A stretch of DNA of 39,857 nucleotides from Candidatus Gottesmanbacteria bacterium RIFCSPLOWO2_01_FULL_39_12b (GTDB lineage: Bacteria > Patescibacteriota > Microgenomatia > 2-02-FULL-39-11), in NCBI GenBank assembly GCA_001780955.1, contig MFJR01000007.1, positions 212,307 to 252,163 of the forward strand. Reading direction: 5' to 3'. Position 1 is the first letter of the stretch, and each line of letters starts with the position of its first letter. This document shows positions 5,021 to 20,161 of this stretch, piece after piece. A program made the position numbers and the translations under genes. Under the pieces are notes generated by a model. The model saw only the letters and a program-made list of their open reading frames with translations. It was not told the DNA's origin and searched no databases.

Positions 5021-6321
5021 GTGATAACAATAAATTTTATCTCAAAGATTCAAATAAATATATTGGGAAAGAAGTAACGGTTAAGGGTTGGGTTTTTAAC
5101 ATAAGATCCAGCGGGTCAATAGTATTTTTACATTTGAGAGACGGGAGTGGATTTATTCAGGCAACGGTTATTAAGGGTGAGTTAACGGTTAAGGATTTTA
5201 CTGAAGTTCAGAAGATAACGCTGGAAACCGCTGTCGAAGTAAAAGGATTATTGAGGGAAGAAAAAAGAGCTCCGGGTGGATATGAAATTACAGTTAAGAA
5301 GGTTCAAATCATATCTTTGGCACAAGAAGAATATCCGATTGGTAAAAAGGAACACGGGCCTGATTTCCTGCTTACTCACAGGCACTTGTGGTTAAGAAGC
5401 CGTAGACAGTGGGCGATTTTACAGATTAGGAATGAAGTAATCAAATCCATAAATGAATTTTTACTGAAGGATAATTTTATCAGGATTGATAGTCCTATGA
5501 TTACTCCGTCAGCTTGTGAAGGAACGACGACTCTTTTTGAAATTGATTATTTCGGAGAAAAGGCGTTTTTATCACAATCAGGACAATTGTATTTGGAAGC
5601 GGCAATTTACTCAGTGGGCCGGTGTTATGACTTTAACCCTGTACTTAGGGCAGAAAAATCCAAAACAAGAAGACACTTAATCGAATTCTGGATGATGGAT
5701 GCCGAGGCGGCTTTTGTTGATTTTGGGGAAATATTGGAAATTCAGGAAGAACTTATATTATATATTTTGAATCATGTGATAAATAACTGCAGAAATAAGC
5801 TTAAATTGCTTGAGCGTAATTCTGAGATACTCACTATGATAAAATCGCCATTTCCAAGAATTACTTATAAAGAAGCGATTAAACAACTGCAAAAATTGGG
5901 TTCTGATATAAAATACGGAACGGATTTAGGCAACGACGATGAGACATGTCTTATGAATCACTATAAACAGCCTATATTTGTTACTCACTTCCCCGCAGAG
6001 ATCAAAGCTTTTTACTGTAAAAAAGATGAAGTAGACAACAGTCTTGCACTTTCCGCTGATCTTTTAGCTCCGGAAGGATACGGAGAGATCACTGGAGGCG
6101 GACAGCGGGAAGAGGATTACCAGTTATTGCTTAAGAACATTAAGAAACATAAGTACGACATTGCCGACTACGAATGGTATCTGGATCTTAGAAAATACGG
6201 CAGCGTTCCGCATAGCGGTTTTGGTCTGGGTCTTGAAAGACTGGTTGCCTGGATTTGTAAGTTAGATCACGTCAGAGAAACGATTCCGTTTCCGAGGATG
6301 TTGGAAAGGTTTAGACCGTGA
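5017..6321 (+). CDS. asnS: Asparagine--tRNA ligase
   Basis: OB-fold (LRDGSG), SQSGQLYLEA, RAEKSKTRRHLIEFWM, WYLDLRKYGSVPHSGFGLGLER. These are AsnRS-type motifs, not the QSPQLYKQ of AspRS. Confidence 0.93.
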   Translation: MSDNNKFYLKDSNKYIGKEVTVKGWVFNIRSSGSIVFLHLRDGSGFIQATVIKGELTVKDFTEVQKITLETAVEVKGLLREEKRAPGGYEITVKKVQIISLAQEEYPIGKKEHGPDFLLTHRHLWLRSRRQWAILQIRNEVIKSINEFLLKDNFIRIDSPMITPSACEGTTTLFEIDYFGEKAFLSQSGQLYLEAAIYSVGRCYDFNPVLRAEKSKTRRHLIEFWMMDAEAAFVDFGEILEIQEELILYILNHVINNCRNKLKLLERNSEILTMIKSPFPRITYKEAIKQLQKLGSDIKYGTDLGNDDETCLMNHYKQPIFVTHFPAEIKAFYCKKDEVDNSLALSADLLAPEGYGEITGGGQREEDYQLLLKNIKKHKYDIADYEWYLDLRKYGSVPHSGFGLGLERLVAWICKLDHVRETIPFPRMLERFRP

Positions 6322-7772
6322 TAGAAGCGAATAATTTTGAAGTAATTATAGGACTTGAAATCCATGTAGAGTTAAAGACCAAGTCCAAGATGTTTTGTGG
6401 TTGCGATGCTAATTGGTTCGGTAAAGAGCCGAACACTCTTTGTTGCCCCGTTTGTCTGGGACTTCCGGGAGCTTTGCCGGTTCCAAATAAAAAAGCGGTT
6501 GAGTGGTGTGTCATGCTGGGATTGGCATTAGACTGTGTGATACCCGAGTTTAGTAAGTTTGACAGGAAGAATTATTTTTATCCCGATCTGCCGAAGGGAT
6601 ACCAGATAAGCCAGTATGATAAACCGTTTGCGATTAATGGTCACCTTGTCATTCCGAGTGAACGAAGTGAATCGAGGAATCTAGCGACCAAAGGGAGCGC
6701 TTCGCTAGATTTCTCCCGACGATTAGATCGGGGTCGAAATGACAACCTGAGGAAAATATGTATAAGGAGAGTGCATATGGAAGAAGATACAGGAAAATTA
6801 ATTCATGCAATTGTTAATGGAGAGAAATGCACTCTTATTGATTTCAATAGAAGCGGGGTGCCACTTGTAGAGATCGTGACGGAACCGGATATCAGAAGCA
6901 GTGAGGAAGCTAGAAGTTTTTTGAAGAAACTGCATCAGATTGTCCGATATTTGGGCATTTCGGACGCGGATATGGAAAAAGGGAGCATGAGGTTGGAACC
7001 GAATATCTCCGTTCGAAAACTGCAAAGCGGCAAAGACACACCCTTGGAATTACCTTCTTACAAAGTGGAAGTGAAGAATATTAATTCCTTCTCTTTTGCC
7101 AAAAAAGCGATTGATTACGAGATAGAGAGACATATTAATTTGTTAACAAAAGGAGAAATTCCTAAACAGGAAACGAGAGGTTGGGACGAGAAAAAAGGAA
7201 TTACTTATTCCCAGAGGAGTAAGGAAGAAGCCCATGACTATCGCTATTTTCCCGAGCCGGATATCCCGCCCATAAGATGGGCGACAAATTTCATCCGCCA
7301 GCTGGCGGATCAAATACCGGAATTACCGGATAAAAAATTAGAAAGATTTATGAAAGAGTTCGGGTTGAGTGAGTATGACGTGACGATATTGACGGATGAT
7401 AAAGATATAGCTGATTATTACGAAAGAGCAGTTTCGGTATCAAGAGGGGTCAGACCTTCAAGTAATTCAAGGTCTGACCCCAATGCAAAGGTTATTGCGA
7501 ACTGGATAATTAATAAAAAAGCAGATATAAATAAGACATCACCAGAAGAGTTGGTAAAGTTGATAACACAACAGAATCAGAAAGTGAATATTACTGAAGA
7601 GGAATTAGTGAAAGTAATAAAAAAGATAATTGAAGCAAATCCAAAGGCTGTGGCCGATTATAAATCAGGCAAGGAACAAGCTCTAATGTTTTTAGTGGGA
7701 CAGGTGATGAGGGAAACAAAAGGGAAGGTAGGAGCTGAGTTTGTCAAAAAAGTTATATTAAAACTATTGTAA
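6318..7772 (+). CDS. gatB: Asp/Glu-tRNA amidotransferase subunit B, carrying three palindromic elements
   Basis: IGLEIHVEL, FDRKNYFYPDLPKGYQISQ, HMEEDTGK, EVKNINSF, DYRYFPEPD, C-terminal YqeY-like domain. GTG start overlaps the asnS stop (GTGA). Confidence 0.96.
   Translation: MIEANNFEVIIGLEIHVELKTKSKMFCGCDANWFGKEPNTLCCPVCLGLPGALPVPNKKAVEWCVMLGLALDCVIPEFSKFDRKNYFYPDLPKGYQISQYDKPFAINGHLVIPSERSESRNLATKGSASLDFSRRLDRGRNDNLRKICIRRVHMEEDTGKLIHAIVNGEKCTLIDFNRSGVPLVEIVTEPDIRSSEEARSFLKKLHQIVRYLGISDADMEKGSMRLEPNISVRKLQSGKDTPLELPSYKVEVKNINSFSFAKKAIDYEIERHINLLTKGEIPKQETRGWDEKKGITYSQRSKEEAHDYRYFPEPDIPPIRWATNFIRQLADQIPELPDKKLERFMKEFGLSEYDVTILTDDKDIADYYERAVSVSRGVRPSSNSRSDPNAKVIANWIINKKADINKTSPEELVKLITQQNQKVNITEEELVKVIKKIIEANPKAVADYKSGKEQALMFLVGQVMRETKGKVGAEFVKKVILKLL
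6646..6745. repeat. ~100-bp nested palindromic (MITE/RPE-like) element in frame within gatB
   Basis: Outer IR TTGTCATTCCGA/TCGAAATGACAA (11/12). Inner IR GAGGAATCTAGCGA (6674-6687)/TCGCTAGATTTCTC (6702-6715) (13/14). Side hairpin CCCGA..TCGGG. Confidence 0.88.
7293..7310. repeat. Perfect 18-bp palindrome ATCCGCCAGCTGGCGGAT in gatB
   Basis: Self-reverse-complementary; encodes IRQLAD; same TCCGCC-N-GGCGGA pattern as the purL element. Confidence 0.8.
7446..7481. repeat. 36-bp REP-like hairpin, copy 1 (in gatB)
   Basis: GGGGTCAGACCTT-N10-AAGGTCTGACCCC, 13-bp perfect stem; 33/36 identical to 19669-19704. Confidence 0.92.
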
Positions 7773-7802
7773 ATCCAGAGCGTTAGAATAATCCCTAATT
7801 TC

Positions 7803-9269
7803 CTACGGGTTGTTAGAAGGGCTTTCTGACGCAATACATACTTGATTTCTCCCATCTTTTTTTGCCTTGTATAGTGCATCGTCAGCTTTTATTAATAAAA
7901 CCTGTTCAGATTCAACTCTCACGGTAGGAAAACTAGCTATACCTATACTTAAGGTACTACCGGGATTATCGTCGGTGTCATTATTTTTAGGGAGGCGTTC
8001 TCTCATAGCTTGAAGAATTTTTTGTGCCAGAGTCGTTGCACCAGCTGTATCAGTATCAGGAAGAATAATGGCAAACTCTTCTCCTCCATAACGGGCTACA
8101 AGATCAGTTTGTCTTACATTGTCACATAATATCCTTGCAACTTGTTCTAATCTTTCATCTCCTGCCGGATGTCCAAAGGTGTCATTGAATCTTTTAAAAA
8201 AGTCCAAATCCGCCATTATTAATGAAATAGGACGATTAGATCTTCTTGCTTGATTAAATTGATCAGCAAGTCTTTCGAAAAATACTCTTCTATTAAACAA
8301 CCCAGTTAGATGATCTGTTGTAGCCAGGCGGTTAAGATCGTTAATAAGGGCAGACATATTGATTGCCTGGCTCAGTTGCTCGCCAAACGCAAAGACATTT
8401 TCACCATCTCCCTCGTTGAAAAAACCTTCATGTGAGCTGTTTGCGCTTAAGATACCAATGGTTTTTCCTTTTACAATGATTGGAATGCCTACGTATGATT
8501 TAATTGGTAGTTCCCCGTCTCTGGTTGTATCTTTCCACCCTTTGTGTTGTGAAGTGTCGGGGATGACTAACATTTTACCTGTTTTTGCAATTTGATTAAG
8601 AGGTTCAGCATCCTCGATTTTTTCTATTGATGGTTCACGTTCAATTACTTGACCATTCCCATCGTATCCCCAACTCATATTAAATATCCGATTCTTGTCT
8701 ATAAACATTATATTGGCTGTTTCAACGTCAATAATATTCGGTAACAATCGTTTCGTTTGATCAAGAATTATATCCAGTGAATGATCTCTAGTTAGAATTT
8801 CTGAAGTTTTCCGAAGTGCTTCGTCTCGTTTTTCTTTGGTGACATCTTGAATACCCAATTCAACGACAGTGGGTTTTCCTCGCTTTATAATAAGATGGGG
8901 AAATAATCTGACTGTTTTTTTCCTACCTGATTTGGTTATTATTTTTACTTCTGGAGGATTAACTACAGATAAGGGTTTATGATGAGAGAAAGCCCGTGCG
9001 GCAGAAATTGTGGTTTCAAATATTTTGTGAAGATATCCTTTTCTGTCTTTAATCGTTCTATCATTGAGTATTTCGTCTACATCTCTACCTACAAGGGTTT
9101 CGTTTCCAGTTAAACCATATTCAACTAAAGCAGCAGGATTAGCTCTTGTAATCTTACGATCTCTTGGATTTACCATTATATGCGGTATAGGATCTCTTAC
9201 TCTATAACGATTTTCTGCAAATTTTACTGGTGGTTCAGAAGTTAAAGAAGGAACTGTTTCACTCATCAT
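7803..9269 (-). CDS. PAS-GAF-GGDEF diguanylate cyclase
   Basis: PAS-like ANPAA..YG; GAF (KSYVGIPI..IGIL); TDHLTGLFNRR, DLDFFKRFNDTFGHPAGD, RQTD I-site, RYGGEEF. Start ATG 9269 or 9266 (ORF track uses TTG 9278). Confidence 0.9.
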   Translation of the reverse strand: MMSETVPSLTSEPPVKFAENRYRVRDPIPHIMVNPRDRKITRANPAALVEYGLTGNETLVGRDVDEILNDRTIKDRKGYLHKIFETTISAARAFSHHKPLSVVNPPEVKIITKSGRKKTVRLFPHLIIKRGKPTVVELGIQDVTKEKRDEALRKTSEILTRDHSLDIILDQTKRLLPNIIDVETANIMFIDKNRIFNMSWGYDGNGQVIEREPSIEKIEDAEPLNQIAKTGKMLVIPDTSQHKGWKDTTRDGELPIKSYVGIPIIVKGKTIGILSANSSHEGFFNEGDGENVFAFGEQLSQAINMSALINDLNRLATTDHLTGLFNRRVFFERLADQFNQARRSNRPISLIMADLDFFKRFNDTFGHPAGDERLEQVARILCDNVRQTDLVARYGGEEFAIILPDTDTAGATTLAQKILQAMRERLPKNNDTDDNPGSTLSIGIASFPTVRVESEQVLLIKADDALYKAKKDGRNQVCIASESPSNNP

Positions 9270-9321
9270 AAGTTTCAAAAGTAACAGGATTATTATATAC
9301 TAAATCAACTGAAAGTTTGAT

Positions 9322-12300
9322 ATGTCCGATTTTGTACACCTTCACTGTCACACTGAGTATTCTCTTCTGGATGGCTTGGCCAAGATTCCGGACTTGCTGC
9401 AAAGAGCCAGAGATCTGGGAATGGATTCCTTGGCCATTACCGATCACGGGGCGATGCACGGGGCGATAAAGTTTTTCCTCAAGGCCCGGGAGGCAGGCAT
9501 AAAGCCAATAATAGGAGTAGAAGCTTATCAGGCGGGAAGAAGCCGGTTTGATAAACAGCAGGGGATAGATCGCGACCAGTTTCATCTGGTGTTATTGGCG
9601 GAAAATAATACCGGTTACCAGAATTTGATGAAGCTTGTTACCCATGCCAATCTGGAAGGATACTACTATAAACCAAGAATCGATCTTCAGGTTCTTCGGG
9701 ATCACAGTGAGGGATTGATCTGTTTATCCGGCTGTTTGAATGGTGAGGTTCCGCACCTACTGATTACTGATCAGGAGGCACAAGCTGAGCGAAAGACCCG
9801 CGAATTTATGGAAATTTTTGGCGAAAACCGTTTTTACCTTGAGATCCAGCAGCACTCAAAAATTATCCAGCAAGTTCAGGCTAATGAGAAAATAATCGCT
9901 TTATCGCGTAAATTAGGTTTGCCGCTTGTAGCAACTAACGATATTCATTATGTGGATAAAGATGATGCTGAAGCGCAAGAGATTCTACTCTGCGTACAAA
10001 CTCAGCGGACGATTCTTGAATCCGGAAGGCCTCTCTCCATGATTGATTCACCGGATTTTTATATGAGAAGTCAGGAAGAAATGAAAGGCTTGTTTATCCA
10101 GTATCCGGAAGCAATTGAGAATACGGTAAAGATAGCAAATCGATGTAATGTTGAGATAGAGCTGGGAAAATGGATTCTTCCCCATTTTGAGGTTCCGCAG
10201 GGAGATACAGCCAATTCTTATCTTAAAAAACTGGCTCATGAGAGACTAAAAAATAGATTTTCTCAGGTCACCCCGAATTTAGGAAACCGTCTCAACTACG
10301 AGCTGGAAATAATTTCGCAAAAAGGTTATTCGACCTATTTTCTGATCGTTTCAGATTTTGTCAATTGGGCAAAAGAAAAGGGAATTGCTGTTGGTCCCGG
10401 TCGTGGATCAGCCGCTGGCAGTCTGGTTGCGTACTCTTTGGGTATCACAGATCTTGATCCGATAAAACATCTTCTTCCTTTTGAAAGATTTTTAAATCCG
10501 GATAGACCTTCACCACCGGATATTGATCTGGATTTTGCCGACGACCGGAGAGATGAGGTAATTGCTTACGTGACCGAAAAATACGGTAACGATAAGGTGG
10601 CTCAAATAATTACTTTTGGGACTATGGAAGCCAGGCAAGCCATTCGGGATGTAGGACGTGCTTTGGGAATGCCTTATGCCCAGCCTGACCGGATTGCCAA
10701 GCTTATTCCAGCTGGAGCACAAGGTTTTCCTATGTCAATTGATAAAGCAATACAGATCACTCCAGAGTTAACTTATGCCTATCAGAATGAACCCGAAACA
10801 AAAAGATTGCTGGATTTAGCCCGTAAACTGGAAGGAGTTGCCCGTCACGCTTCCGTACACGCTGCAGGAATTGTCATCTCAGATAAACCATTAACCGCTT
10901 ATACTCCATTACAAAAAGAAACCAAAGGCCAAAGAATAATTACCCAATATGATATGTATTGCTTGGATCTTAATGCCGCTGACGGTAAAGCGGTAGGACT
11001 TTTGAAGATGGATTTATTAGGACTTCGTAATCTAACAATACTTGAAAATTGCATGAAGTTTGTGCAGCAAAATCGTGATATAAAAATTGATTTACTATCA
11101 CTTTCTCTGGAAGACCACGATGTTTACAATCTTATTTCTTCGGGTGAGACGACGGGAATATTTCAGATGGAATCAGCCGGTATGAGAAGACTCGCCCGGG
11201 ATCTCAAACCATCAAAGTTTACTGATATCTCAGCCATGGTAGCTCTATTTAGACCTGGACCGATGGATTGGATACCTTCTTTTATCGAAGCTAAAGCCAA
11301 TCCGAAAAAAATTAAATACCCGCATCCGGATCTTAAACAAATCTTATCAGAAACTTACGGGATAGCCGTTTATCAGGAGCAATGTATGCAGATTGCGAAC
11401 CAAATGGCAGGTTATTCTATGGTAGAAGCCGATAAACTGAGGATGGCAATCGGTAAGAAAAAACCGGAATACATGAAGAAAGAAAAAGCCAAATTTATAA
11501 GCGGATGTGTGAAAAAAGGATACACAAAAACGGTAGCCGAAAATATTTTTTCCCTGATAGAGAAATTCGTCGGTTACGGTTTTAATAAAGCCCATTCTGC
11601 TTCCTATGCCATGATTGCTTATCAAACGGCTTTCATGAAGGTAAAGTATCCTGTAGAGTTTATGACCGCAGTCTTTATAGCAGAAAGTAGAGGAGTCTCT
11701 GGCCCGGCCAGAGACGACAAGATTTCTCAAGCTATTTTAGAATGCCGAAGGATGGATATATACCTACTTCCGCCTGACATCAATACGTCTGAAATCGAGT
11801 TTACTATCGAGCAGGATAAAACAAGTAAGTGGGGGGGGAAAATTAGATTCGGATTATCGGCCATAAAAAATGTAGGTTCTGCCGCCATCAATGTCTTGCT
11901 TGACGCGAGACTTAAGGAAGGTCCTTTCAAATCATTTACTGACTTTATAAATAGAGTGGACCTGTCAAAAGTTACCCGGAAAACACTTGAGAGTTTAATT
12001 AAAGCAGGCGCTATGGACCGGTTTGGTAAACGAGCGGCTTTGCTTGCTTGTTATTCTCAGATAGTAGAAAAAATTCATAAAGCAAAAGCTAAAAAAAATG
12101 AGGATCAGGTCAGTTTATTTGCTGAGGATGAAGAGATTAACCTAACAGATAATCTTCCTGAAATTGAAGAGTTGTCAAAAGAAGAATTGTTACTCTTCGA
12201 AAAAGAATTATTAGGTTTTTATCTTACCGAACACCCGTTGACTCCTTTACTCCCAACACTTGAAAAAAAGGTAACCCATAGAATTAATACCCTTTCTGAA

Positions 12301-12564
12301 GCGAAATCAACTGTGATTATAGGCGGATTAATTTCCTCGGTAAAAAAAATCTTTACCAAAAACGGAAACAATGAAATGGCCTTTGTCAAATTAGATGATT
12401 TCACAGGGGCGATTGAACTCGTGATATTTCCTTCAGTATTTGAAAGAACGAGATATTTATGGAGGCAAGATGCGGTAATTTTGGTAAAGGGTAATATTAA
12501 TGAGAGAGAAGACAGATTAACGGTCATAGTTGATGACGCCAAAAATTTAATTTCGGACTCTTGA
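9322..12564 (+). CDS. dnaE: DNA polymerase III alpha subunit
   Basis: PHP HLHCHTEYSLLDG, GPGRGSAAGS, PPDIDLDF, KMDLLGL, YGFNKAHS, C-terminal OB-fold; no intein evident. Confidence 0.98.
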   Translation: MSDFVHLHCHTEYSLLDGLAKIPDLLQRARDLGMDSLAITDHGAMHGAIKFFLKAREAGIKPIIGVEAYQAGRSRFDKQQGIDRDQFHLVLLAENNTGYQNLMKLVTHANLEGYYYKPRIDLQVLRDHSEGLICLSGCLNGEVPHLLITDQEAQAERKTREFMEIFGENRFYLEIQQHSKIIQQVQANEKIIALSRKLGLPLVATNDIHYVDKDDAEAQEILLCVQTQRTILESGRPLSMIDSPDFYMRSQEEMKGLFIQYPEAIENTVKIANRCNVEIELGKWILPHFEVPQGDTANSYLKKLAHERLKNRFSQVTPNLGNRLNYELEIISQKGYSTYFLIVSDFVNWAKEKGIAVGPGRGSAAGSLVAYSLGITDLDPIKHLLPFERFLNPDRPSPPDIDLDFADDRRDEVIAYVTEKYGNDKVAQIITFGTMEARQAIRDVGRALGMPYAQPDRIAKLIPAGAQGFPMSIDKAIQITPELTYAYQNEPETKRLLDLARKLEGVARHASVHAAGIVISDKPLTAYTPLQKETKGQRIITQYDMYCLDLNAADGKAVGLLKMDLLGLRNLTILENCMKFVQQNRDIKIDLLSLSLEDHDVYNLISSGETTGIFQMESAGMRRLARDLKPSKFTDISAMVALFRPGPMDWIPSFIEAKANPKKIKYPHPDLKQILSETYGIAVYQEQCMQIANQMAGYSMVEADKLRMAIGKKKPEYMKKEKAKFISGCVKKGYTKTVAENIFSLIEKFVGYGFNKAHSASYAMIAYQTAFMKVKYPVEFMTAVFIAESRGVSGPARDDKISQAILECRRMDIYLLPPDINTSEIEFTIEQDKTSKWGGKIRFGLSAIKNVGSAAINVLLDARLKEGPFKSFTDFINRVDLSKVTRKTLESLIKAGAMDRFGKRAALLACYSQIVEKIHKAKAKKNEDQVSLFAEDEEINLTDNLPEIEELSKEELLLFEKELLGFYLTEHPLTPLLPTLEKKVTHRINTLSEAKSTVIIGGLISSVKKIFTKNGNNEMAFVKLDDFTGAIELVIFPSVFERTRYLWRQDAVILVKGNINEREDRLTVIVDDAKNLISDS

Positions 12565-12589
12565 CTTAATTTAAAGGCTAATTTACAAT
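12561..12589 (+). promoter_or_regulatory. Putative sigma70 promoter of atp operon
   Basis: TTGACT (12561-12566), 17 bp spacer, TACAAT (12584-12589). Confidence 0.7.
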
Positions 12590-12616
12590 GGAAAACAGTT
12601 TTATAATAATTGATAA

Positions 12617-12925
12617 ATGCCGATTAGGAAGCGAATTGCCTTAAGTTTCAAAGAGGGAAGATTAGTTTCAAAAGAGATAAATAAGAATAGCCCTAATGAT
12701 AAGGATAATAGTCGAGAGAAACTAATTAGAGGTGTCGGTTTGGTCAGTGAGTTGGGATTTGTAATCTCTTTTCCTCTAGTTGGAGGGGTTTTTTTAGGGA
12801 TATGGCTGGATAAAAGATTTTCGTCTTCACCTAAAATGACCCTTTCTTTTCTTTTTTTAGGGCTGGTAATCGCTTTCTCTAATTTGTTTTTAATAATAAG
12901 CGAATTTTCTAAAAAAAAGAAGTAA
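12617..12925 (+). CDS. AtpZ/AtpI-family ATP synthase accessory membrane protein
   Basis: Two hydrophobic helices, GGVFLGIWLDKRF motif; first gene of the atp operon. Confidence 0.8.
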   Translation: MPIRKRIALSFKEGRLVSKEINKNSPNDKDNSREKLIRGVGLVSELGFVISFPLVGGVFLGIWLDKRFSSSPKMTLSFLFLGLVIAFSNLFLIISEFSKKKK

Positions 12926-12930
12926 ACAAC

Positions 12931-13692
12931 ATGCCTCAACCACACATCTCTCTTTCTGCTGAAAAAATAGGGTCATTATTTGGAATTCCTATCACAAATT
13001 CAATATTAATGACCTGGATGACAATGTTATTTCTGACAGTTTTTTCTCTAATGGCAGTTGCCAAGATATCTTTGGTTCCTTCCAATATTCAATCAATGGC
13101 TGAGGTTATAATTGATGGATTGTATAATATTTTTAAGAGCGTTGTCGGTGAACATTATATTAAATCTTTTTTTCCTCTTCTGGCAACTATATTTCTTTTT
13201 ATAGCGGTTGCAAATTGGGGAGGGTTGCTTCCCGGGGTTGGTACGATTGGTTTTCATAGGGAGGTAATCACCGAGGTCGTGGAGGCGAAATCAGAATTTA
13301 TACCACTTTTTCGAGGTGCCACAGCGGATCTTAACACCACATTAGCGCTTGCTATTATCGCTGTCTTATCTATTCAGTATTTTGGCGTACGTTCTTTGGG
13401 AGGCGGGTACTTTAAGAAATTTTTTAATTTCTCAGATCCGATCATGTTTGGAGTAGGTCTTCTGGAAATAGTGTCCGAGATATCCAGAGTTATTTCATTT
13501 GCATTTCGTCTTTTTGGTAACATTTTTGCCGGTGAGGTATTGTTAACAGTCATTGCATTTTTGATGCCCCTCATCGCCCCCTTACCATTTTTGGGTCTGG
13601 AACTGTTTGTGGGTTTTATTCAAGCGCTGGTTTTTTCCATGCTAACCGCCGTATTTTTGAATATGGCTACTGTTTCACATGACAGTCACTAA
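12931..13692 (+). CDS. atpB: ATP synthase Fo subunit a
   Basis: TADLNTTLALA, SFAFRLFGNIFAGE, FIQALVF. Confidence 0.97.
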   Translation: MPQPHISLSAEKIGSLFGIPITNSILMTWMTMLFLTVFSLMAVAKISLVPSNIQSMAEVIIDGLYNIFKSVVGEHYIKSFFPLLATIFLFIAVANWGGLLPGVGTIGFHREVITEVVEAKSEFIPLFRGATADLNTTLALAIIAVLSIQYFGVRSLGGGYFKKFFNFSDPIMFGVGLLEIVSEISRVISFAFRLFGNIFAGEVLLTVIAFLMPLIAPLPFLGLELFVGFIQALVFSMLTAVFLNMATVSHDSH

Positions 13693-13709
13693 TTTTTAAA
13701 TTCGATTTC

Positions 13710-13960
<251 letters not shown>

Positions 13961-13963
<3 letters not shown>

Positions 13964-13999
13964 GTAACTTAAGTGCCTTAGGTGACCTAAGTGACATAG
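13961..13999 (+). repeat. Degenerate 9-bp tandem repeat between atpE and atpF
   Basis: TAAGTAACT TAAGTGCCT TAGGTGACC TAAGTGACA TAG. Confidence 0.75.
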
Positions 14000-14009
14000 A
14001 AATTTATAC

Positions 14010-14519
14010 ATGGAAAAATTAGGTATTGAACCATCATTATTGATTACGCAGATTGTGAATTTCACAATCATGATTTTCATTCTCGGAAAACTTTTGTATA
14101 AACCTATACTAAAATCCTTAGAGGACCGGAGGAAAAAAATAGAGGAAGGGCTTTTGTTTACAGAAAAGGCAAAAAAAGAGTTAGAAACAATAGACAAGCG
14201 TCATGAAACGGTACTCAATCAGGCCAGAAAAGAAGCAAAAGCCATTTTAGAAGATGCAAAAAAAGACGGGAGGAAGCTAAAAGAAGAAATGTTGACAGAG
14301 GGAAAAAATGAGGTTAGCCATTTAAAGCAAAAATTGGAAAAGGAGATGAAAAACAGAGAAGAAGAAATTCAAGCTGAAATGACTTCTCATACAGTTGAGA
14401 TTGCTGCCGAAATGGTAAAGAGGCTTATTCCAGAGGTGCTTAAAGATGAAAGCCAACATCAACTGATATTGAAACAGTTAGAGCGAATTGAAAAAACCCA
14501 TGAAAAAAGACAATCATAA
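14010..14519 (+). CDS. atpF: ATP synthase Fo subunit b
   Basis: LGI..LITQIVNF, LYKPI..LEDRR..I, coiled coil. Confidence 0.95.
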   Translation: MEKLGIEPSLLITQIVNFTIMIFILGKLLYKPILKSLEDRRKKIEEGLLFTEKAKKELETIDKRHETVLNQARKEAKAILEDAKKDGRKLKEEMLTEGKNEVSHLKQKLEKEMKNREEEIQAEMTSHTVEIAAEMVKRLIPEVLKDESQHQLILKQLERIEKTHEKRQS

Positions 14520-14841
14520 ACTTCAAGAAGCATTAGATCTGATGAACTTCGATACCACCCATGTTTTTGCTGATGATTTACAGGAATCTATTAAGCTGGC
14601 AGTAGAAAAAGCGAAAGGTGAAAAAGCGGCTATGGTTGAAAGTGCATCCACGTTTATTCCTGCCGAAAAACAAAAACTGGAGAATATTTTAGATACCATC
14701 TTCAAAAGGAGAATAAGTGTCGATTATTTTGTCAAACCTAGTTTGTTGGGCGGATTTCGTGTAACTGTGGGAGATTGGAAATTGGATGGAACTCTGGCTT
14801 GTCAATTAGAAAAAATTCAATCTAAGTTTGGAGTGAAATAA
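14500..14841 (+). CDS. atpH: ATP synthase delta subunit, short form
   Basis: C-terminal delta motifs VESA and VKPSLLGGFRVTVGDWKLDGTL; lies between atpF and atpA. ATG 14500 preferred to TTG 14488. Confidence 0.85.
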   Translation: MKKDNHKLQEALDLMNFDTTHVFADDLQESIKLAVEKAKGEKAAMVESASTFIPAEKQKLENILDTIFKRRISVDYFVKPSLLGGFRVTVGDWKLDGTLACQLEKIQSKFGVK

Positions 14842-14844
14842 TTT

Positions 14845-16356
14845 ATGAGCAGTGGAAGTAAATTAGTTACCAAAATTCTAGAAAAACTGGCGACTTATCA
14901 ACCAAAAATAGAAGAGCAACTGACGGGGAAAATTATCGCAGTTGCCGATGGGGTTGCTAAAGTTTCAGGTTTATATGGAGTTTCATATCTGGAAATGGTT
15001 GAATTCCCGCACGGAGTTTTTGGCGTAGCAATTAATTTGGAAGAAAAACAAGTAGGAGTTATTGTTTTAGGTGACTATTTAAAGCTGCAAGAAGGAGACG
15101 AAGTGAAAAATACCGGAAAACTGTTGTCAATTGCAGTAGGAGAAGAATTAATCGGAAGAGTTATAGATCCGATTGGAAATCCTCTGGACGGTAAAGGAGA
15201 AATCAGATCAAAAAAAAATTATCCTATAGAAAAAGTAGCCCCGGGTGTGATTGCCCGTCAACCGGTAAATACGTCATTGGCAACAGGGATAAAAGCAATT
15301 GACGCTATGATTCCAATCGGTCGGGGACAAAGAGAACTTATAATTGGTGATCGGGGCGTTGGAAAAACTCAAATAGCTTTGGATACGATAATAAACCAAA
15401 AAGAGGAAAAAGTTATTTGTATTTATGTGGCCATCGGTCAAAAAGCCTCAAGGGTGGCTCAAGTAATATCTGAGCTGGAGAAAAATCACGCTTTAAGTCA
15501 CACTATTATAGTAGCAGCAAATGCTTCAGATCCTGCTTCATATCAATATTTGGCTCCATACGCAGGTTGCGCCATCGGTGAATATTTTATGGATTTAGGG
15601 CGTGATGCATTGGTAATATATGATGATTTGTCAAAACACGCTTGGGCTTATCGGCAAATATCTTTAATCTTGAGGCGTCCTTCCGGACGAGAGGCCTATC
15701 CGGGTGATGTATTTTACCTGCACAGTAGACTTCTGGAAAGAGCTTGCAGATTAAATCAGGAGCATGGAGGGGGATCTTTGACTGCTTTGCCTATTATCGA
15801 GACACTGGCTGGAGATCTCTCCTCATATATCCCTACTAACGTAATTTCGATTACCGATGGACAAATTTATTTGGAACCTGACCTATTTTATTCCGGAATG
15901 CGACCGGCAATTTCAGTCGGAGCATCAGTTTCCCGGGTGGGTGGTTCTGCACAGATTAAGGCGATGAAACAAGTCGCCGGAAGGTTGCGTCTTGATTTGG
16001 CCCAATATAGAGAGTTGGCAGCCTTTGCCCAATTTTCCTCAGATTTGGATGCGGCGACTAAAAATCAAATTGAACGAGGGAGCAGAATGACCCAACTGTT
16101 AAAACAGGCAACCTTTAAGCCGATGCAGGTAGAACTACAGATCGCACTTCTTTGGGCAGGAGTTAACGGTTTTTTGGATGATATTGCCACAAATGATATT
16201 ACCCAATTTGAGACTGAATATCTAGAGTATTTACAAACGAGTGAGAGGAAATTGTTAAAATCCATCAAAGAAGAAAAGAAGTTAAGCGAAGATATAGAAA
16301 AAAAACTTAAAAAAGCAGTTGAAGATTTTAAAAAAAGTTGGCAGGTGAAAAAATAA
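14845..16356 (+). CDS. atpA: ATP synthase F1 alpha
   Basis: [37 protein letters not shown]. Confidence 0.98.
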
Positions 16357-16359
16357 TCT

Positions 16360-18628
<2,269 letters not shown>

Positions 18629-18631
18629 ATT

Positions 18632-19051
18632 ATGTCTTCATTTCTTCTCGAGATTATTACACCTGACCGGATTGTATTTACTGATAATGTTGAGATGGTG
18701 GTTGTCCCCTCAAGTTCCGGAACACTTGGTATATTACCAAAACATGTTCCACTCTTTGCCTTACTTTCCGAAGGTGAATTAAAAATTAAAAGACAAGTCG
18801 AAGATTTTTTTTTGTCTATTGGCGGGGGGTTTATCGAAGTCACAAAAAATAAAGTCATGATCTTGGTTACTCGGGCGGTGAAAGCTTCTGAACTGAATGA
18901 ACAGGAAATTATTCAAGCGCGTCAAAAAGCCCAGGATGCTCTCTCGCAGAAGCCAACTGGTGAGGCCTTAATTTCTGCTCAAGTGATTCTTCGTCAATCA
19001 CTGATAGACTTAAAAGTTTTACGACGAAGGAAGAAAATTATAACTCACTGA
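18632..19051 (+). CDS. atpC: ATP synthase F1 epsilon
   Basis: LEIITPD, GTLGILPKHVP, GGGFIEV. Confidence 0.95.
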   Translation: MSSFLLEIITPDRIVFTDNVEMVVVPSSSGTLGILPKHVPLFALLSEGELKIKRQVEDFFLSIGGGFIEVTKNKVMILVTRAVKASELNEQEIIQARQKAQDALSQKPTGEALISAQVILRQSLIDLKVLRRRKKIITH

Positions 19052-20161
19052 ATGAATAAAAAAGGTTATTTGATTTTAGAAAATGGCCAAATTTTTGAGG
19101 GAATATCTGTGGGCGCCGAAAAACAAGTTACCGGCGAAGTAGTTTTTAATACCGGTATGGTTGGTTATCCGGAAGGCTTTACCGATCCCTCTTACTTCGG
19201 ACAGATCCTCACGATGACTTACCCTCTTATAGGTAATTACGGTGTAACAGATAAAAAAACCTGGGAATCGGATAGGCTTCAAATAAGGGGACTAATTGTA
19301 TCATCATATATCGATAATAAATCACACTATACGGCATCTCAGACTCTAAGTGACTGGTTAAAAAAAGAAGGGATTCCTGCTTTGGCCAATATCGATACCC
19401 GAACTCTGACTAAAATTATTCGTGAATTTGGCGTTATGAAAGGCCAAATTACTTTTTCACCCCCGATTAAATCGGGGTTATTTTTTGATGACATTAAAGA
19501 CGATAATTTATTACCCTACGTGTCCTGCAAAAAACCCTCAGTTTATAAAGGTGGAGACTTTCGCATTCTGACTCTAGATTGCGGATTGAAAGAAAACCAA
19601 ATCAGAATTTGGCAAAAATTAAAAGTAACGGTAATCCGAGTTCCTTGGGACTATGACCCATTCAAAAAGGGGTCAGACCTCAAAGTAAATCAAGGTCTGA
19701 CCCCAGTAAAATTTGACGCTGTTTTTATCAGTAACGGACCGGGAGATCCGAAACAAGCCGTGAGAACCATAGAAATTGTCAGAGAGGCGATTAAACGAGA
19801 GTTTCCTTTACTTGGAATATGTTTGGGGAATCAGATTCTGGCTCTTGCGGCTAAAGCAGATACCTTCAAATTGAAATACGGACACCGCGGACAGAATCAA
19901 CCGGTTAAAGATGAAATCAGTGGCCGCTGTTATATTACGACTCAAAACCACGGATTCGCGGTTGATATAAAAACTTTGCCCGAGGGATGGATACCCTGGT
20001 TTACTAATCTTAATGACGATACTAACGAAGGTATAAGGCATAAAAAATTACCGTTTCTTAGCTGTCAGTTTCATCCAGAAGCAACACCTGGGCCGACTGA
20101 TACCGAGTGGATTTTTGAATACTTCCTGACGGAGGCAAAAAAATGGCTAAAAAAACCTTAA
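19052..20161 (+). CDS. carA: Carbamoyl-phosphate synthase small subunit
   Basis: GEVVFNTGMVGYPE, SNGPGDP, GICLGNQ, TTQNHGF, QFHPEATPGP. Confidence 0.97.
   Translation: MNKKGYLILENGQIFEGISVGAEKQVTGEVVFNTGMVGYPEGFTDPSYFGQILTMTYPLIGNYGVTDKKTWESDRLQIRGLIVSSYIDNKSHYTASQTLSDWLKKEGIPALANIDTRTLTKIIREFGVMKGQITFSPPIKSGLFFDDIKDDNLLPYVSCKKPSVYKGGDFRILTLDCGLKENQIRIWQKLKVTVIRVPWDYDPFKKGSDLKVNQGLTPVKFDAVFISNGPGDPKQAVRTIEIVREAIKREFPLLGICLGNQILALAAKADTFKLKYGHRGQNQPVKDEISGRCYITTQNHGFAVDIKTLPEGWIPWFTNLNDDTNEGIRHKKLPFLSCQFHPEATPGPTDTEWIFEYFLTEAKKWLKKP
19669..19704. repeat. 36-bp REP-like hairpin, copy 2 (in carA)
   Basis: GGGGTCAGACCT-N12-AGGTCTGACCCC; 33/36 identical to 7446-7481. Confidence 0.92.

Follow-up and report, generated by a model that had tools for sequence, protein, structure and literature searches.

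The window analyzed here, a 39,857-nucleotide stretch of the genome of Candidatus Gottesmanbacteria bacterium RIFCSPLOWO2_01_FULL_39_12b, an ultra-small groundwater organism (genome G000, 1.27 Mb in 15 contigs, 84% complete; contig MFJR01000007.1, here C7, positions 212307 to 252163), contains nearly the same 36-bp hairpin in two protein-coding genes, gatB and carA, where it is translated in different frames. The locus raises the question of whether such a repeat is a protein motif, a nucleic acid structure kept for the host, or a mobile element, and what would move it. Based on the evidence below, it is probably a 36-bp “double-foot” hairpin element that is associated with a REP-associated tyrosine transposase (RAYT; REP, repetitive extragenic palindrome) and translated in protein loops, in a system resembling REP/RAYT.

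The gatB copy (window positions 7446 to 7481, no strand assigned) reads GGGGTCAGACCT-TCAAGTAATTCA-AGGTCTGACCCC, and the carA copy (19669 to 19704, no strand assigned) reads GGGGTCAGACCT-CAAAGTAAATCA-AGGTCTGACCCC. A preliminary description of the window had reported identical 12-nt arms, three differences confined to the central 12 nt, an A flanking both copies, and different reading frames, all of which the sequence and the open reading frames (ORFs) confirmed; the flanking A held for both window copies but is not a family trait. The gatB copy forms a 13-bp stem with a C x C mismatch at pair 14:23, two A-T pairs, and a GTAA loop and is translated as GVRPSSNSRSDP (frame G-V-R-P...R-S-D-P). The carA copy forms a perfect 12-bp stem and is translated as (K)GSDLKVNQGLTP (frame G-S-D-L...G-L-T-P). 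Folding as single-stranded DNA gave -13.8 and -12.6 kcal/mol for the gatB and carA copies (z = -6.0 and -6.8, respectively), which none of 200 shuffles equaled. The exact 12-nt arm occurs in just these four places within the window, and among its 17 listed inverted repeats these two copies are the only GC-rich ones with arms of at least 12 nt plus a loop.

The product of gatB (6318 to 7772, forward strand) matches Pfam families GatB_N (1.2e-111) and GatB_Yqey. Its residues 377 to 388 are encoded by the element and lie in a variable-length linker before the C-terminal helical (YqeY-like) part, and the Pfam match picks up again in frame past the element (residues 411 to 484). The product of carA (19052 to 20161, forward strand) matches CPSase_sm_chain and GATase; element-encoded residues 206 to 218 occupy a loop of the glutamine amidotransferase domain between the strand ending in VIRVPWDYDPF and the FDAVFISNGPGDP strand, and the GATase match (residues 174 to 358) runs across them. 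In an AlphaFold model of CarA that is of moderate quality only (mean predicted local distance difference test score [pLDDT], 67; 14-row alignment), the insert, modeled with low confidence (pLDDT below 50 at residues 213 to 217), projects from the amidotransferase domain in a hairpin-like shape, which lends weak support to a position in a surface loop. An assembly artifact had been named as a possible source of the two copies. The gatB copy was bridged with 0 differences by a contig (X3, record 17, window 7287 to 7534) that comes from another study's independent run, so this copy is not an artifact of assembly. Contigs of the probable source run X1 bridged both copies, and among the matches listed the carA copy was bridged only by that run and by no independent one.

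The preliminary description had also proposed a genome search for further copies, and a large family was found. In a census of perfect GC-rich hairpins in G000, the 36-bp element was by far the largest family, and nearly all others were singletons. Six copies have exact arms, and relaxing the arms gave 23 copies (22 of 36 bp and one of 35 bp). An exact pattern search returned 19 matches in G000, and the same pattern read backwards, as a control, returned 0 matches in 41 genomes. The pattern was present in 3 of 40 relatives, namely, G007 and G013 (same family, other genera) and G034 (another family of the class). When one genome per species (185,579 species) was scanned for exact matches, 30 stretches in seven record sets were obtained; four of these sets are additional genomes (G041 to G044), and the other three coincide with the hits in G007, G013, and G034 and were counted once. 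With G000 included, eight genomes bear the element (G000, G007, G013, G034, G041, G042, G043, and G044), and after removal of duplicates the pool contained 68 distinct copies (55 of 36 bp, 10 of 35 bp, 2 of 37 bp, and 1 of 34 bp). Phage carriage was not found, as a viral contig collection contained 0 exact matches to the element. Some copies are nested or clustered: at G034:C19:11977-12026 (L093), a 35-bp copy lies between both arms of another copy, and several G034 copies are directly adjoined by partial arms (flanks in L056, L090, and L097).

Base pairing was examined across the 55 copies of 36 bp, which include 48 distinct sequences with the consensus [G/A]GGGTCAGRCCTT-N10-AAGGYCTGACCC[C/T]. 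Watson-Crick pairing holds for pairs 1:36 through 13:24 in 53 to 55 of the 55 copies, and two of these pairs change on both sides: 24 copies have G-C and 30 have A-T at pair 1:36, and 49 have A-T and 5 have G-C at pair 9:28. Pair 14:23 is Watson-Crick in none of the 55, with all four bases occurring and the identical base on both sides in 37. The 36-bp copies outside long ORFs, 21 in number, follow this mismatch rule as well. Farther in, 46 copies have A-T at pair 15:22, positions 16 and 21 often pair, and the loop has 4 bases. The element accordingly starts from feet [G/A]GGG and CCC[C/T] and continues as a stem of 13 bp, which a 1x1 mismatch separates from two weak pairs capped by a tetraloop; the foot is GGGG or AGGG in all 68 pooled copies. 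Part of the mismatch rule can be attributed to coding constraints in the two frames used, since a stop codon arises from a purine at position 14 or 23 in the GVRP frame and from a T in the GSDL frame. Because copies are read in two frames, occur on either strand and between genes, and change on both sides at pairs 1:36 and 9:28, conservation is at the level of nucleic acid structure and not of protein, as had been proposed from the two window copies. The relevant structure would more likely be single-stranded DNA than RNA. A single 13-nt arm cannot fold alone (GGTC-A-GACC leaves a 1-nt loop).

The proposal that the hairpin is a mobile mini-element is supported by a clean insertion in PurD, by independent insertions in CarA, and by adjacency to a RAYT gene. 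The PurD copy (G000:C7:253169-253204) lies just past the end of the window, and all five aligned relatives have an exact 12-residue gap at this site, revealing a clean 12-codon insertion in G000; one of the five, G007, has a family copy at another PurD site. The CarA loop of G000 is 9 to 13 residues longer than those of 13 element-free homologs (two alignments) and 9 residues longer than those of the six closest homologs (77 to 81% identical). In PheT and a class II aminoacyl-tRNA synthetase, the element also lies in variable-length loops. Among 120 CarA homologs there is one other carrier, P0013, whose copy shares site and frame with that of G000 and has A-type feet and a different loop. Neither the row nearest to P0013 (P0022) nor the six rows nearest to G000 CarA carry the element, and a clade of the P0013 and G000 CarA carriers was rejected (approximately unbiased [AU] test, P = 0.0019). 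In G013 CarA, a 37-bp copy is shifted by a few nucleotides. Given the AU rejection and the displaced G013 copy, the CarA loop was struck at least twice independently and probably a third time. Among 120 GatB homologs (432 to 525 aa in length), P0138 carries the element at the same site and P0133 carries it in another loop; a FastTree tree separates the carriers P0138 and G000, and the AU test did not reject their clade (P = 0.255).

Target-site duplications of at least 4 bp were found at none of the 68 copies, and duplications of 3 bp were found at 5 copies versus 2.4 expected. Among the 136 flanks, G is avoided at -1 (2/136) and -2 (7/136), and T is in excess at -2. A classical miniature inverted-repeat transposable element of a DDE transposon was rejected on the basis of the absent duplications. 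A reading as a terminator was rejected since no T-run follows the stem, and a reading as a repeat like those of clustered regularly interspaced short palindromic repeats (CRISPR) was likewise rejected.

Other unusual segments occur in these host genes. Odd inserts lie in the same permissive loops of relatives (...TPRGWPNGLPRGGETG... in the GatB linker of G007, L018; ...SDNPQPRIHPASAESHKRRDNPQ... in PheT of G008; GatB of G006 is L020, and L126 and L127 are PheT of G008 and G007) and may represent other hairpin families. A second, unrelated hairpin in gatB (window 6674 to 6715; arms GAGGAATCTAGCGA and TCGCTAGATTTCTC, 14 nt, 93% complementary) lies in a segment of ~30 residues (~aa 114 to 145, ...SERSESRNLATKGSASLDFSRRLDRGRNDN...) that is absent or replaced in most relatives. 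It is nearly a singleton in G000, with one half-similar site at C1:22966.

Genes matching Pfam Y1_Tnp are present in 32 of the 41 genomes of the class, with up to 14 matches per genome and 6 in G000. One of these (G000:C7:547583-548227; 215 codons, GTG start) contains the motifs PNHFHIL (HFH) and RYIHLNP (YIHLNP) and was taken as the candidate RAYT. It scores 53.5 bits against Y1_Tnp (cutoff, 23) and passes the NCBIfam equivalog for REP-associated tyrosine transposases, NF047646, narrowly (83.7 bits; cutoff, 80). In the PDB, its sole relative is E. coli TnpA-REP (4ER8; E = 0.004). The HUH and Tyr motifs of the two proteins align (HMH and YIYINP in 4ER8), and the candidate RAYT fits the class 2 motifs NH[IFV]H and YIxNNP / YIH[QN]NP as tabulated in PMC6006769. 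The left arm, GGGGTCAGACCTTGATT, lies 49 nt upstream of the GTG start; the gene ends (...KGVRP-TAG) within a complete 36-bp element, the right arm of which closes the unit. Within the 84% of the genome that is represented, the gene is single copy (one 100% match; next match, 40%).

The adjacency to a RAYT-like transposase that the preliminary description had suggested looking for was thus found, and the arm-gene-arm layout recurs in G034 (RAYT 64% identical) and in G044 (60% identical; the inner left arm has decayed, and the outer left and right arms are kept). In G013, where a contig breaks off, a C-terminal RAYT fragment of 36 residues (78% identical) continues into an element. All three complete units have the left arm 45 to 50 nt before the start codon and the stop codon in the loop preceding the right arm. 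Their loci are unrelated: the G000 unit lies between ORFs of unknown family near an MFS gene, the G034 unit lies between PBP and Mur ligase genes, and in G044 the left arm begins 10 nt past a tRNA-Ile(GAT) gene (ARAGORN; L142, G044:C57, 26-123). A cognate RAYT ortholog was found in four of the eight element-bearing genomes (G000, G034, G044, and the G013 fragment) and in none of 37 element-free relatives, in which the best hit was at most 43% identical over most of its length or 51% identical over 99 aa. Other RAYT-like genes of relatives have their own inverted arms in the same positions at at least 6 of 9 loci judged by eye (for example, GGGACGGTCCTTTGAT, GGGGACGGGGGTAGA, and GGGGACGGTTCTCAA), and each transposase therefore appears to have its own arm. 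Transfer of the system between lineages is suggested by sequence comparison, since identical 36-mers occur within G000 and also in G043, the RAYTs of G000 and G034 are 64% identical versus 50 to 54% for CarA, and the distribution is patchy.

The five further Y1_Tnp (RAYT-like) genes of G000 (C7:205683-206120, ~6 kb before the window start; C7:483975; C7:502546; C7:535072; and C13:35481) are 40 to 43% identical to the cognate RAYT where matched. “Solitary arms” in G007, G013, and G034 were examined as RAYT markers, and 0 of 7 such stretches contained a RAYT-like ORF; two of the arms are at contig ends, and the remainder have a degraded or diverged partner arm close by. Another palindrome family, GCAAGGGCAGCCCTTGC...GCAAGGGCTGCCCTTGC, has two copies in G000 (C6:24404 and C8:6278), one of them ~200 bp from the C8 copy of the 36-bp element, with both in the same 1,224-aa ORF. 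In G013, a different RAYT-like gene (237 aa) has this motif on either side (L053, G013:C18, ~713-1430).

Copies were then placed relative to genes. In G000, 19 of 23 lie inside ORFs of at least 190 aa and 4 lie outside; by the same criterion, 81% of 4,000 random 36-bp windows of this genome fall in ORFs, so that the element neither prefers nor avoids genes. In the pool, where an in-ORF copy was defined by an ORF of at least 150 aa with at least 15 aa on each side of the copy, 30 of 68 copies lie outside long ORFs. The 34 in-ORF copies of 36 bp are read in the GSDL frame (25 copies; G-S-D-L-x4-G-L-T-P/L) or the GVRP frame (9 copies; G/R-V-R-P-x4-R-S-D-P). None uses the third frame, because it carries the TGA of the right arm, and a stop is present in this frame in 109 of 110 strand-copies. 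Frame is kept through border changes in the four in-ORF copies whose length is not a multiple of three (for example, in G013 CarA).

The copies in G000 fall in 18 host ORFs, 16 of which match Pfam families. Enzymes among the products include GatB, CarA, PurD, PheT, FolD, a class II aminoacyl-tRNA synthetase, and an ATP-dependent DNA ligase. The others are a TP_methylase protein, a NUDIX protein, a methyltransferase, three GT4 glycosyltransferases, a YfhO-like protein, an S24/nucleotidyltransferase protein, a collagen-repeat protein, and two proteins without a family, one of which has two copies. The sole 35-bp copy of G000 (C7:197049-197083) lies near the C terminus of a GT4 glycosyltransferase (aa 328 of 370), where it is entered in the otherwise forbidden frame (GQT...) and left in the RSDP frame; because the frame switches across this copy, the last ~30 residues of the protein may be a replaced tail.

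Taken as a mobile system, the hairpin would be a nonautonomous element made up of the inverted arms that terminate a RAYT-type (REP-associated, HUH/Y1) unit, with the gene omitted. The full unit in G000 comprises the left arm, ~49 nt, the 215-codon RAYT gene with its stop codon in the hairpin loop, and the right arm. The RAYT would bind the folded hairpin on single-stranded DNA, with the 13-bp stem and the always-unpaired 14:23 position as likely recognition features. After cleaving at the feet, it would insert the hairpin anew and leave no duplication of the target. Most insertions would fall in genes because G000 has almost no intergenic DNA, and copies would persist there only if the frame is kept (36 bp is 12 codons), if the frame is free of TGA, and if the site is a tolerant surface loop or linker. 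The inserts are presumably translated and harmless.

Several observations weigh against this reading. The GTAG or GTGG tetranucleotide is absent at the 5' foot in all 68 copies. Loops mostly differ between copies (48 distinct sequences among the 55) and the arms are near-invariant, so that a simple recent burst from one master copy would not be expected; drift in the loops beside near-invariance in the arms fits multiplication restricted to copies that the enzyme still recognizes. With the G000 query, no cognate RAYT was found in G007, G041, G042, or G043 (best hits, 40 to 47% identical), and the copies in these genomes would be orphans or would have been moved by something else. No conserved target motif was present in the 136 flanks beyond the G avoidance and T excess described above. 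The suggestion that a length of 3n aids survival in ORFs held as a tendency, in that 55 of the 68 copies are 36 bp, but its link with position in ORFs was a trend that did not reach significance (34 of 55 copies of 36 bp versus 4 of 13 copies of other lengths in ORFs; Fisher test, P = 0.06). Precise indels in orthologs, also proposed earlier, were obtained for PurD but not for GatB, in which 19 aligned relatives gave no clean 12-residue gap because the linker varies in length among relatives (the nearest of the 120 homologs are 70 to 73% identical). The same-site GatB copy in P0138 may reflect shared ancestry. Contigs of four runs listed no allele without the element, although contigs drop rare variants, and no transposition event was seen directly.

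In another explanation, the repeats are real but the adjoining RAYT is not their mover, the RAYT gene being one more landing place and the copies being spread by an IS200/IS605-type enzyme (IS, insertion sequence), by another of the five Y1 paralogs in the genome, or by recombination or gene conversion. Half of the element-bearing genomes (4 of 8) lack a detectable cognate RAYT, Y1_Tnp genes are common (32 of 41 genomes, with six matches in G000), and the elements land in many genes, all of which would agree with it. It is nonetheless unlikely, given that complete arm-gene-arm units occur at three unrelated loci in three genomes and the gene end runs into an element in a fourth, that the left arm lies 45 to 50 nt before the start and the stop codon in the loop before the right arm, that other RAYT paralogs bear different arms in the same layout, and that the cognate ortholog was found only in element-bearing genomes.

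Still less probable is maintenance of the hairpins for a host DNA or RNA function (ribosome or polymerase pausing, mRNA stabilizing, or protein binding), with mobility secondary or extinct. Arms that stay near-invariant while loops drift, protein loops that are occupied in separate lineages, and a gene share in G000 equal to the random one (19 of 23 copies against 81% of 4,000 windows) could be read in this way. However, the near-invariant arms are equally expected if only transposase-recognized copies keep multiplying; furthermore, the host genes are functionally unrelated, the same sites are free of the insert in close relatives, the stem is followed by no T-run or other signal, and just 3 of 40 relatives have the element. 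A selected peptide motif, for which it can be said that both encoded peptides begin with Gly and end with Pro or Leu, as suits loops, was rejected, since one DNA sequence yields two different peptides, copies lie outside long ORFs (4 of 23 in G000 and 30 of 68 in the pool), and the both-sided base changes preserve pairing and not residues. An assembly or sequencing artifact is opposed by the independent contig across the gatB copy and by the presence of the family in eight separately assembled genomes; this and the peptide motif are together extremely improbable.

REP sequences and RAYT transposases are textbook features of Proteobacteria, in which REPs are defined as extragenic. The element described here shares with the REP/REPIN-RAYT systems (“REPtron”) of E. 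coli, Pseudomonas, and Stenotrophomonas, as presented in passages of PMC8266576, PMC6006769, and PMC3733652 and in the abstract of PMC3337134, a short, GC-rich, multicopy palindrome, a single-copy HUH/Y1 gene bracketed by inverted repeats, the absence of a target duplication, and a repeat overlapping the 3' end of the transposase ORF. According to a passage of PMC8266576, cleavage by E. coli TnpA-REP needs an unpaired position in the REP stem, whatever its sequence; an unpaired stem position is always present in the 36-mer. Passages of Quentin et al. (PMC6006769) describe REPs sitting in frame inside tnpAREP genes and “double-foot” REPs that can form from an inverted REP dimer by central deletion, and such a collapsed inverted dimer matches the 36-mer. 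In the REPIN form, two REPs, each a hairpin, are inverted around a spacer; the element has two inverted arms and a 10-nt spacer, and the “double-foot” REP of PMC6006769 fits it better. Unlike REPs and REPINs as characterized in these passages, the 36-mer has a [G/A]GGG foot and no GTAG or GTGG, a single arm cannot fold, so that the 36-mer is the smallest unit, and the element is not extragenic (19 of 23 copies in ORFs in G000). RAYTs are described in published abstracts as inherited mostly vertically, whereas the RAYT unit here is found patchily at three unrelated loci, more as expected of transfer. The host, too, differs, being a member of the Patescibacteria; literature searches returned no report of such elements in this group, with the supplementary tables of PMC3733652 and PMC6006769 (intragenic REPs and REP families) lying outside their scope. 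The element works like a REP/RAYT system but, because the REP foot is lacking and the location is not extragenic, is not a plain member.

Rickettsia palindromic elements (RPEs), the classic in-frame counterpart of the repeat, which form families RPE-1 to RPE-8 of about 100 to 150 bp, are several times longer than the 36 bp found here and belong to another phylum. They resemble the present element, as summarized in PMC3733652, in being in-frame palindromes in the ORFs of a small-genome bacterium that add peptides to probably working proteins. The RPE passages of that article name no transposase, whereas a candidate transposase lies beside a master-like copy here. Intragenic REPs and tyrosine transposases flanked by inverted repeats (“TIRYT”) are also described in passages of Di Nocera et al. 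2013 (PMC3733652). Such REPs are likewise read through within genes for known proteins and are thought to lie in linkers or loops, but in the passages seen they are a minority of large extragenic families, whereas the gene share here is like that of random windows and essential genes are hit repeatedly.

In IS200/IS605 elements, the subterminal hairpins of the left and right ends differ from each other, insertion is next to a fixed tetra- or pentanucleotide, and a genome carries several complete copies (general background, in part from passages of PMC8266576). The element resembles them and their gene-less, palindrome-associated derivatives in its Y1 HUH enzyme, in the recognition of a hairpin on single-stranded DNA that is proposed here, and in the lack of target duplication. 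It differs in that its ends are inverted copies of one arm, no fixed target is seen, the full unit is single copy, and the protein scores as a RAYT.

A more far-reaching interpretation is possible but doubtful: an active RAYT/mini-REPIN system of ultra-small Patescibacteria, with essential genes as its normal habitat, a hairpin exchanged between families of the class, and the same few loops hit again in independent lineages. If this were true, the returns to the same loops would mean either that the transposase truly chooses its targets or that very few sites are tolerated, and the system would continually supply streamlined proteomes with loop insertions and would provide a natural map of permissive sites. 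To our knowledge, REP/RAYT movement has never been directly caught; since transposase and substrate together span less than 800 bp, the question of whether RAYTs transpose their repeats would become directly testable.

The finding places the same kind of system as REP/RAYT in a bacterium of the candidate phyla radiation, where it is at its smallest, with a hairpin of 36 bases and a gene of 215 codons. The share of hairpins within genes, among them genes of translation, nucleotide synthesis, and DNA ligation, is as high as chance permits. Some of the unusual variation in length among housekeeping proteins of these organisms is explained in this way, and loops that are tolerant of insertions are marked. 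For annotators and structure predictors, the result is a warning that such 12-residue loops are foreign DNA. The pair also offers a compact enzyme and substrate for the study of hairpin recognition and movement by RAYTs, especially the role of the always-unpaired base.

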